IMG/VR virus record: IMGVR_UViG_3300049456_000054
Location: 2,053 to 66,052 of that record
Source: a virus
Taxonomy: Duplodnaviria > Caudoviricetes
Strand: one strand, 5' to 3'
Length of the DNA stretch: 64,000 nucleotides
The position numbers were made by a program, and so were the translations under genes. This document shows positions 33,083 through 35,384 of the stretch, piece after piece. A model generated the notes under the pieces. The model worked only from the letters and a program-made list of their open reading frames with translations. It was not told where the DNA came from and did no database searches. Within the stretch, counting starts at the first letter, position 1; each line of letters opens with the position of its first letter.

Positions 33083-35384
33083 TCAGGCGCCCTTCATGAC
33101 CCTGAAAGCGTTGACGGTCGAGAGCTGTGCTCCCACGCGCCAGAACATGAACCACGGATTGTTACTCACTCGTCACGGCGAGTGAGGCCAGGTCGTTTCC
33201 GCCTGGCTCTGCGTCTTTTCCATCGGCGCAGACCGGACTATATCTTCAGCTCCAGCCCTGCTCAGCTGTACCGGCTTCGCAGGTCTGTCGGAGTTGCCAC
33301 ACGTGTAGTCTCTACGGACTCCCCGGCACGGGTTGCCTCGGTATTCCCCCGTCGATCCTGGAGGGGTTCACCGATACAGTGCGGTGTTCACTAGCACGTC
33401 ACCGTGCTAGGCGGCCAGTTCAAATTGACCGGCCTGCCCTGCGGGCAGGATGCCGCCGGTCCCCTTGACCAGCGGTTCGTAGATCATCGATACGCCGCGT
33501 TGCTGTTACCACCCGCCTCTGAGGGCGGGCAGGCAGGTCGTTTCCGCCTGCCTCTGCAGCTTTGCCATCGCTGCAGACCGGACTGTAACTTCACCTGCGG
33601 TCCATCGCCCCCGGTGCACTCGGGGCGCGGCCCATAACACAGGTGCCACACGCTCAGTCTCTACGGAACCCTGTAGTGCGAGGTTTCCACGGTATTCCCC
33701 GTCTTGCCTGGTGGGGTTCACCGTTACGGTGCGGTTTGCACTGGCGGATCGCTCCGTCAGGCGGCCAGTGCGAAGTCGTGCTTCGCCTCGACCCGGTCGA
33801 CGATGATGTACTGCCCGAAGTCCCCGAAGATCGCTTCGAGGGTGGTGGTCGCCACGCCGGAGGCCATTGTGGTGGACTCGTAAATGGGAGCGCCCAGCAA
33901 AGTTTCCGGCTGACCCTTCCCCAAATTCGTCCAGAATGAACTGCCGCCGGCGGTGTCGAGCTGCCGGAACCGGTTGATCTGCGAGACGTTCGCGACCCAG
34001 GCGCAGCCGGGAGCATTCCTGAACCTGGCCGGAAGCGCCGCCTGGACGGCATATACGTCGGCGATGGCCACGACCGTAGTGGTCGCGGTGGTGACGACGG
34101 TAGTGGCGCCGTTGACGACGCCCTGCGGCTGGCCGGCACCGGAGCCGGTGGCGAACGCCGCCTCTTCGAGGCGATCCTTGGCGTCGGCCAGGAGGCCCGG
34201 CAGCTGCTGGCCGAAATCGGTGTCTTCGAGAACTTCGTAGCTCGTCGTTGTTACCCGCACGTCAGGGCGTGCGGGGCCAGGTCGTTTCCGCCTGGCTCTG
34301 CGTCTTTTCCATCGGCGCAGACCGGACCATATCTTCACCTCCAGTCCCGCCCGGCTATACCGGCCTGGCAGGCCTGTCGGAGGTGCCTCGCGTGTGGTCT
34401 CTACGGAGTCCCCGGCACGGGTTCCCTCGGTATTCCCCGGTCGATCCTGGCGGGGTTCACCGATACAGCGTGGTTGTTCACTGGCCAGTCACCTGGTCAG
34501 GCGGCAACTTTTTCCTTACCGAACACCCAGGCAGCGGCCTTGCCGGGTGTGACGACGATGTTCGCGACGGTGGGCGTGTTGTCGGTGACGATGGTGCCTT
34601 CAGCGAGCCACGCCGCGTTGACGCCGGCGGAGTTGACGCCGTTCCACGTGTTGGACGTGGTGGTCTTGACGTTGGAGATCCGCCGCCACGGGTTGGCGCT
34701 GGAGGCGTTGGTGAGGATGATGGTCGGGTCGAGGATGAACGGAAGGAGATATCCACCGTTCGCCAGGGTGAGGGACAGGGCGGCGCGCTGGGCGTTGCCC
34801 TGCGGGTCCTGCAGGTACTCCTGGAACGCTTCCTGGTACTCCTCGGCGCCGGTCAGGAGGATGTGCCGGGCGATGTTGTTGTTGGTGAAGTAGCCGCCGT
34901 TCTCGACCTTGCGGGTCGTGACCTCGGCGTACTCGGGCATCAGGTTCCCGCGCTTGGCCTCGTGCTCGATCGCGTCCAGGGCGCGTTCGCGGAGTTCGGA
35001 GCGGCGCATCAGGATCTGGTTCTCGGACCGGATGACGTCCTGGCAGTCGTAGGGGTCCCGGTTGTTGCGGATCACCAGGTCGGGGCCGGAGGGGCCGGAG
35101 GTGCCGTACCGTCCGCCGCCGTAGCCGTTCCCGCTGGCGGCGGGGTCCTGCCCGGCGGGGGCTTCGAGGTTGGCGGGGTCGGCGGCGGCGCGGGTGATGT
35201 TGCGGATCTTCTCCATCCGCTCGATCAGCGGCTTGGATTTGGCGTCGAGGGCTTCCCACCGGTCGAGGAGGGTGTCGCGGAGGTCGCCGTCTTTCTCCTC
35301 GGTGGTTTCCCCGTCGTCCTCCATCCGCTGGAGCTCGTTCTTGATCCTCGCCATCTCGTCGAGGTATTCCTGCAATGCGGCCAT
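33083..35384 (-). CDS. major capsid protein (HK97 fold), 4 exons: 35384-34518, 34242-33791, 33497-33428, 33154-33083; 486 aa spliced
   Basis: GGYLLP, AAWLAEG, LLGAPI, IFGDF motifs; junctions restore WVFG|SYEV, DRV|GVS and GQAG|WFMFWRVG in one frame (867+452+70+72 nt). Confidence 0.92.
33155..33427 (-). ncRNA. group I intron 3 in capsid gene (273 nt, no ORF)
   Basis: P1 CGGU|CA with UGGCCG; P10 UGAACUG with exon UGGUUCA; R GTAGAGACTA, canonical S AAGATATAGTCC. Confidence 0.92.
33498..33790 (-). ncRNA. group I intron 2 in capsid gene (293 nt, no ORF)
   Basis: exon U before, terminal G; P1 GGU|CG with UGGCC; R GTAGAGACTG, S AAGTTACAGTCC. Confidence 0.88.
34243..34517 (-). ncRNA. group I intron 1 in capsid gene (275 nt, no ORF)
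   Basis: exon U before, terminal G; P1 CGGU|AA with UUGCCG; R GTAGAGACCA, S AAGATATGGTCC. Confidence 0.9.

Follow-up and report, generated by a model that had tools for sequence, protein, structure and literature searches.

The window analysed here is a 64,000-nucleotide stretch (positions 2,053 to 66,052) of the viral record IMGVR_UViG_3300049456_000054 (Caudoviricetes). It covers most of the record, a metagenomic phage genome of 66,052 bases that has terminal repeats. Its predicted HK97-type major capsid gene, on the minus strand, is made of four exons with three predicted group I introns between them, none of which carries an open reading frame (ORF). When the reading frame of an exon is followed into its unspliced intron, it stops within a few codons, and the three resulting tails (KEKVAA, (V)EAKHDFALAA and QFELAA) end in VAA, LAA and LAA, with Ala-Ala after a hydrophobic residue in 3/3 introns. 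The (L/V)-Ala-Ala-stop of each tail maps onto three successive RNA elements: the P10 segment, the P1 guide and P2. On balance, we regard the tail as the translated guide followed by a stop codon embedded in P2, a known arrangement that blocks ribosomes, and the Ala-Ala as a consequence of the GC-rich guide. The original prediction for this stretch had taken the tails for ssrA-like tags that mark the unspliced product for proteolysis, a reading that we entertain with more reserve.

RNA anatomy of the read-through tails

Retranslation reproduces exactly the coordinates and peptides of the three tails as originally predicted (Table 1). Each tail is the in-frame translation of the first 20–34 nucleotides of its intron, bases that also work as RNA. 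From 5' to 3', a short P1 loop is followed by the P10 segment, which supplies the Leu or Val codon, then by the guide GCCG, and finally by a C and the stop codon, which open P2. The distance to GCCGCC is 12 nt in introns 1 and 3 (phase 0) and 25 nt in intron 2 (phase 2), and the frame is kept despite the different phase and the longer P1 loop, as had been claimed. The Val codon split at the exon 2/intron 2 border has its third base at position 33790.

The 5' exon ends in U in all three cases (...GGT) and pairs with the guide GCC(G) to give P1; the pairing of GCCG with exon CGGU includes the U.G wobble at the splice site. Among the groups of the intron family described below, the exon end is GGT in 35/52, and CGGT precedes 20/23 of those with a GCCGC guide. 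The guide in frame reads Ala-Ala, GCC GCC being antisense (with wobble) to the Gly codons GGC GGU, which are frequent at the insertion sites, and it is translated as such because the stop directly follows it within P2. A P2-anchored alignment places the last C of GCCGCC as the first base of P2 (C-TGAC...GTCA-G), so the stop codon occupies P2 base pairs 2–4. This P2 pairing is backed by compensatory changes across 24 homologues (columns 51-57/62-69), and the same position carries TGA, TAG or TAA in different homologues, with the partner base compensating each time.

The codon ahead of Ala-Ala belongs to the P10/P1-extension segment, whose partner is formed by the opening bases of the 3' exon. 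Intron 3 has GAACTG, which, with wobble allowed, pairs with 3' exon TGGTTC over its full length. As read from the sequence, AGTT of intron 1 pairs with AGCT, the GTT codon being the partner of 3' exon AGC(T), and CTG of intron 2 pairs with CGG. The original prediction counted the first Ala codon (GCC) as forced by guide pairing, and this holds; the claim must be widened, as the second GCC, the preceding Leu or Val codon and the stop are RNA-pairing positions too. The TTCGCACTGGCCGCC stretch of tail 2 (FALAA) recurs in an intron at a different site (L196:3726); across the family, FALAA is found at 2 sites and LALAA at 3.

Reading frame and tail endings across the intron family

Homologous introns were collected by two pattern scans of viral contigs, with core motifs lying outside P1 and P2, and by an nhmmer profile. 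The survey gave at least 107 near-full introns in at least 85 distinct contexts; it is a sample, and all counts are among the matches listed. Five contexts were dropped for an unclear host frame (L065, L055, L119, L163 and L068), two for lying at a contig edge (L008:13 and L033:7733) and two for lack of an anchor (L044:2529 and L085:7148), and the introns kept, about 80, form 58 site/tail groups; the frame of L026:8225 was assigned by hand from its EQFAV motif. Frame statistics were computed on 52 groups with P1 and P2 predictors anchored on P2, leaving out window intron 1, L016 and L097, in which the predictors placed no P1 or P2, as well as L085:7887 and L172 (wrong P1).

The frame in which the host gene enters the intron is strongly biased. 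A stop precedes P3 in 52/52 used frames and in 66 of the 104 readings in other frames (p 1.6e-8), a count that also rules out the idea that every frame stops before P3. Of the three frames, the one in use stops first in 36/52 groups (p 1.5e-7), and it ends in Ala-Ala in 23/52 groups compared with 0/104 for out-of-frame readings. In the 35 groups read through to the guide, the guide G stands at codon position 1 in 30 (the script counted 28/35; L013, with tail SLAA, and L077:2220, with RAP, were one-base miscalls of the guide G and were corrected). GCCGCC-stop in random frames, which the original prediction had named as an outcome fatal to it, is thus not what the homologues show. The frame is kept over P1 loops of 5–41 nt and in all three insertion phases: script-called loops measure 6–18 nt in phase 0; 5, 8 and 41 nt in phase 1; and 7, 10, 13 and 28 nt in phase 2 (the 25 nt of window intron 2 come from direct reading and stand apart from these). 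The Pro-Pro reading of the guide (xG CCG CCx) is used by no GCCGC-guide group, and the GCCGC-guide groups outside the zero frame (L057, L103 and L031) are all in the Gly-Arg-Leu frame.

The tails themselves are diverse. Ala-Ala ends are present in 25/58 site/tail groups, with examples such as QFELAA, ELAA, ELALAA (three sites), RRDFALAA, KLAA, FSLAA, VSMAA, EYELAA, DQAA and SRAA; in a subfamily at the GG|Y site of capsid genes, the tails end in V/M/L-AAA. In 20/58 groups the stop lies inside the P1 loop after 0–4 intron-coded residues (V-stop, S-stop, SA-stop and LN-stop, for instance), and the other 13/58 end in PVA, AVA, RAP, AAFN, AVLCG, LAVR, LAVV, GRLAW, GRPVG and others. The expectation that (L/V)AA-stop would be kept in homologous introns is therefore borne out for the Ala-Ala end in those 25 groups and fails in 33/58. 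Where the P2 base has no in-frame stop, the GNRA tetraloop of P2 (GTGA or GTAA) supplies it, as in L001 (about 1488-1491), L205 (about 916-919), L103, L057 and L031.

The capsid gene, its introns and their relatives

The assignment as an HK97-type major capsid gene is supported by the Pfam match of exon 2 (Table 1) together with the tblastn matches of exon 1, which lie in Gordonia, Mycobacterium and Rhodococcus phages, share 32-36% identity with it and are annotated as major capsid proteins. Spliced as predicted, the four exons encode 489 aa. Alignments to intron-free homologous capsids of other viral contigs run without a gap across each junction (FG|SY, DRV|GVS and AG|WF) and so confirm the three splice sites.

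Table 1 Features of the split capsid gene and its read-through tails (positions in the window)
Feature	Position	Strand	Details
Capsid exon 1	34518..35393	-	GTG start at 35393; alternative start ATG 35384
Capsid exon 2	33791..34242	-	Pfam PF05065 Phage_capsid, E 1e-27
Capsid exon 3	33428..33497	-	70 nt
Capsid exon 4	33083..33154	-	TGA at end
Intron 1	34243..34517	-	275 nt; phase 0; 5' exon ...TTCGGT; junction FG|SY
Intron 2	33498..33790	-	293 nt; phase 2 (gt|c); extended P1 hairpin GCGAAG/CTTCGC; junction DRV|GVS
Intron 3	33155..33427	-	273 nt; phase 0; 5' exon ...GCCGGT; junction AG|WF
Tail 1, KEKVAA-stop	34497..34517	-	After ...AAAWVFG; guide GCCGCC 34500-34505; stop TGA 34497-34499 inside P2
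Tail 2, (V)EAKHDFALAA-stop	33757..33790	-	After ...IVDR; guide GCCGCC 33760-33765; stop TGA 33757-33759
Tail 3, QFELAA-stop	33407..33427	-	After ...AGQAG; guide 33410-33415; stop TAG 33407-33409 (P2 base pairs 2-4)
P2 hairpin of intron 3	33391..33410	-	CTAGCACG-GTGA-CGTGCTAG; opens with last guide C, stop codon within

The three introns are paralogous (mean column identity 79%), and each ends in the G expected of an omega-G (...cgacG, ...caacG and ...atccG). At the gathering score, Rfam finds no match in the whole window. In a relaxed search, RF00028 (Intron_gpI; gathering score 50) matches intron 3 with 39.6 bits (E 4e-8) and intron 1 with 19.5 bits (E 0.0062), and intron 2 is not matched even then. 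With these sub-threshold scores, the group I call rests on homology, junction validation and covariation. Intron 2 scores 234 bits against the nhmmer family profile, and the consensus fold of 24 family members shows compensatory changes in 29/46 predicted pairs. Several lines agree in assigning the three predicted introns to the group I family: the exon U and omega-G, the restored frame, spliced relatives and covariation.

The spliced relatives are mycobacteriophage introns. By blastn, members of the family, at about 72% identity, lie in the minor tail gene in 28 records of Cluster J mycobacteriophages, and splicing of the BAKA (tail gene 34) and LittleE (capsid gene 13) introns was established by RT-PCR and N-terminal sequencing (Pope et al. 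2013, PMC3706429). With nhmmer, the BAKA intron reaches 240 bits, being itself one of the four sequences from which the profile was built. These Cluster J introns share with those of the window both the family and a place in virion genes of actinobacteriophages. Splicing is demonstrated for the relatives BAKA and LittleE only (PMC3706429); the window introns are predicted from their sequence. BAKA and LittleE have one intron per gene and the window capsid gene has three; the LittleE intron carries an endonuclease ORF and the window introns are ORF-less; and the stop of BAKA and LittleE comes from the GTAA tetraloop of P2, in contrast to the P2 base in the window. A term search of the main text of PMC3706429 gave 0 occurrences each of 'stop codon' and 'in-frame'.

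The capsid motif ...GG|Y, just past the maturation cleavage region, recurs as an insertion site in capsids that share only 35-50% identity (L105:11206, L090, L010:2174, L096:1793, L032, L024, L128, L180 and L205, the last being LittleE). The two Gly codons of this motif, GGC GGT, pair exactly with the guide GCCGCC when wobble is allowed. Other contigs also have capsid genes split by two to five or more members of the intron family (L196, with introns at about 4980, 4504 and 3726; L105, at 11206 and 11709; L085, L071, L077 and L044), so heavy splitting by introns is common in this phage group. The insertion sites in these contigs differ from those of the window, for example LPFVLD|, SYEV| and AAAWV|. 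Two introns at the same GQ(A/S)G| site (L120:2147-2427 and L087:2012-2292) share their 5' end (P1-P2) with window intron 3 (33155-33427), and their P5-P6 region resembles window intron 2 (33498-33790) instead; such mosaics suggest recombination between intron copies.

The stretch downstream of the capsid gene (32382-33075, minus strand) opens, right behind the stop codon, with a perfect hairpin of some 17 bp, which appeared as spurious miRNA matches at 33027-33075. Beyond it, a 213-aa ORF has a weak HNH_3 match (23.5 bits, cut-off 24.8) and may encode a free-standing homing endonuclease beside the ORF-less introns.

Explanations for the Ala-Ala ends

Most group I introns have an in-frame stop just past the 5' junction, according to reviews (PMC3073962 and PMC3984707), and the role proposed for it there and in PMC8565351 is to shield the ribozyme from ribosomes. 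The original prediction saw something special in the in-frame stop of all three window introns; such a stop is known from phage group I introns in general (PMC3073962 and PMC3984707). Phage and bacterial introns such as T4 td share the early in-frame stop with those of the window (described in the same passages), whose stop differs from the td type in being built into the first P2 base pairs, straight after a GC-rich guide. The peptide end of the read-through product is not discussed in the accessible parts of these three papers.

On this basis we slightly favor the explanation in which the tail is the translated guide with a stop embedded in P2. The stop would halt ribosomes on the unspliced intron ahead of the P3-P9 core, so that the core is not unwound, and selection would match the P1 loop length to the insertion phase such that the earliest post-guide stop is used. 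A ribosome-blocking role for the window introns follows from the cited literature by analogy, and the frame bias is also what this role of an early in-frame stop predicts. The (L/V)AA end would mainly be a by-product of guide plus stop, because the residues follow the guide, Ala-Ala is missing from over half the groups, free bases are not extra-conserved and stops in the P1 loop are not depleted. As a side effect, ClpXP may still accept a truncated capsid that ends in LAA or VAA.

The details behind these statements are as follows. Guide changes are tracked by the residues: GTCGCC gives VA-stop, GCCCCC gives AP-stop, GCCGTC gives AV... and GCCACC gives AT.... In the second Ala codon the third base, being part of a P2 pair, never changes; the first base does, and the residue becomes T, P or V. 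Among seven introns at one site, the 18 tail-coding bases include one variable column; 5 of these bases are free of P1/P10 pairing and 1/5 varies, which is no excess of conservation. In-frame stops within the P1 loop are not depleted in GCCGC-guide introns (4/23 groups, against 9/46 out of frame), and with other guides they are enriched (13/29 against 10/58, p 0.009).

Several observations weigh against the by-product explanation. Another frame has an earlier stop in 9/23 Ala-Ala groups, and the guide is read as codons in the 30/35 groups given above; the other frames often offer a stop in the GTGA tetraloop or in J2/3. Late-stop groups (stop at least 12 nt past the guide G) end in Ala-Ala in 4/9 cases (L001, which is BAKA, L180, L103 and L129), and there the Ala-Ala comes from P2-stem sequence and not from the guide; out-of-frame readings that stop in the same late zone give 0/53 (Fisher p 2e-4 against 4/9). 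As L001 and L180 belong to one related lineage, the independent late-stop cases are about 3/8. Finally, FALAA and LALAA fit the E. coli ClpXP optimum exactly. Two further comparisons were left unused: a hydrophobic codon before Ala-Ala is not significantly more frequent when translated (26/32) than when untranslated (7/13; hand count), and an enrichment of aromatic residues and Leu at position -5 has p about 0.02-0.05 by hand estimate on non-independent tails. Taken together, the evidence for selection on the peptide is mixed.

These points are what a selected, intron-encoded degron would explain. The guide would be kept in frame and late-stop variants shaped toward an ssrA-like (L/V/A)AA end, and ClpXP would clear truncated capsid or tail proteins that could poison assembly. 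We consider this possible and clearly short of probable. In its favor, Ala-Ala ends are confined to the used frame in the counts above, with the late-stop groups drawing theirs from non-guide sequence, and both experimentally spliced relatives have Ala-rich tails (BAKA, LSDDLAAAAA-stop; LittleE, WNSVATAAA-stop). The likeness to ssrA stands as originally proposed: FALAA and LALAA conform to the optimum of ClpXP in E. coli, [L/F/Y/W]-[L/A/R]-L-A-A (PMC10862746), LAA lowers LacZ levels in M. tuberculosis (PMC3613350), and M. tuberculosis ClpX takes VAA in preference to AAA or GAA and does not bind VDD (bioRxiv 10.1101/491043). Against it, the 33/58 groups without Ala-Ala include the 20 that stop 0–4 residues past the junction, earlier in-frame stops are not depleted with GCCGC guides, and the variation of the second Ala codon is that of an RNA. 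The same sources temper the match, since terminal Ala-Ala is critical and yet insufficient alone in E. coli (PMC10862746) and AAA is weaker than VAA for M. tuberculosis ClpX (10.1101/491043).

The window tails share the C-terminal (L/V)AA and the free carboxylate with tmRNA (ssrA) tags and with natural degrons such as those of E. coli RseA and M. tuberculosis RsdA (VAA end), as described in PMC10862746, bioRxiv 10.1101/491043 and PMC3613350. They differ in that an intron encodes them in cis, whereas ssrA is added by trans-translation and natural degrons are exposed by proteolysis; for the window tails, protease recognition is a candidate property. A tmRNA search of the 66,052-base record found none. 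A conceptual precedent is yeast HAC1 (Di Santo et al., via PMC8002603), in which the 5' end of the intron, translated from unspliced mRNA, adds a C-terminal tail that leads to degradation as a fail-safe. HAC1 is eukaryotic, spliced by Ire1 and not by the spliceosome, degraded by ubiquitin and the proteasome, and experimentally validated; in contrast, the case in the window is one of sequence evidence, and its tail overlaps a ribozyme guide. The original prediction knew of no description, and in agreement our search of openly accessible articles turned up none that connects read-through tails of group I introns with ssrA or Clp; an Ala-Ala read-through degron in such introns is apparently previously undescribed.

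C-terminal residues influence translation termination, and Ala-Ala might be favored for this reason: small neutral residues might allow clean, fast termination, ribosome release and RNA folding, and a Pro-Pro frame might stall ribosomes. We find this improbable. The avoidance of the Pro-Pro frame by GCCGC-guide groups, and the restriction of the exceptions to Gly-Arg-Leu, fit it, but the Pro-Pro frame also has the latest stop, adjoining P3, and one effect cannot be told from the other. That the three tails agree by mere coincidence, as recent duplicates with an unselected frame, is very unlikely: the paralogues are similar and introns 1 and 3 share phase and loop length, but the survey disfavors it, as the frame is kept across loops and phases and the stop codons alternate with compensation.

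Even if the Ala-Ala end is a by-product of guide and stop, the family follows a rule in which P1 loop length tracks insertion phase so that the P2-embedded stop is read in frame, a rule that can help in the annotation of split capsid genes, both in actinophage genomes and in metagenomic ones. The further proposal, that the guide and P2 region of this actinophage intron family mimics an ssrA tag in cis and directs the unspliced capsid or tail product to ClpXP, is tentative and suggested by sequence comparison. Capsid genes are among the most highly expressed genes of phages, and truncated capsid protein can disturb assembly. If true, the proposal would make these introns a prokaryotic counterpart of the HAC1 intron degron and could account for the presence of three or more introns in a capsid gene that is highly expressed, with no poisoning of assembly. 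One stretch of RNA would then serve at once in splice-site recognition, in ribosome blocking and in the quality control of protein.

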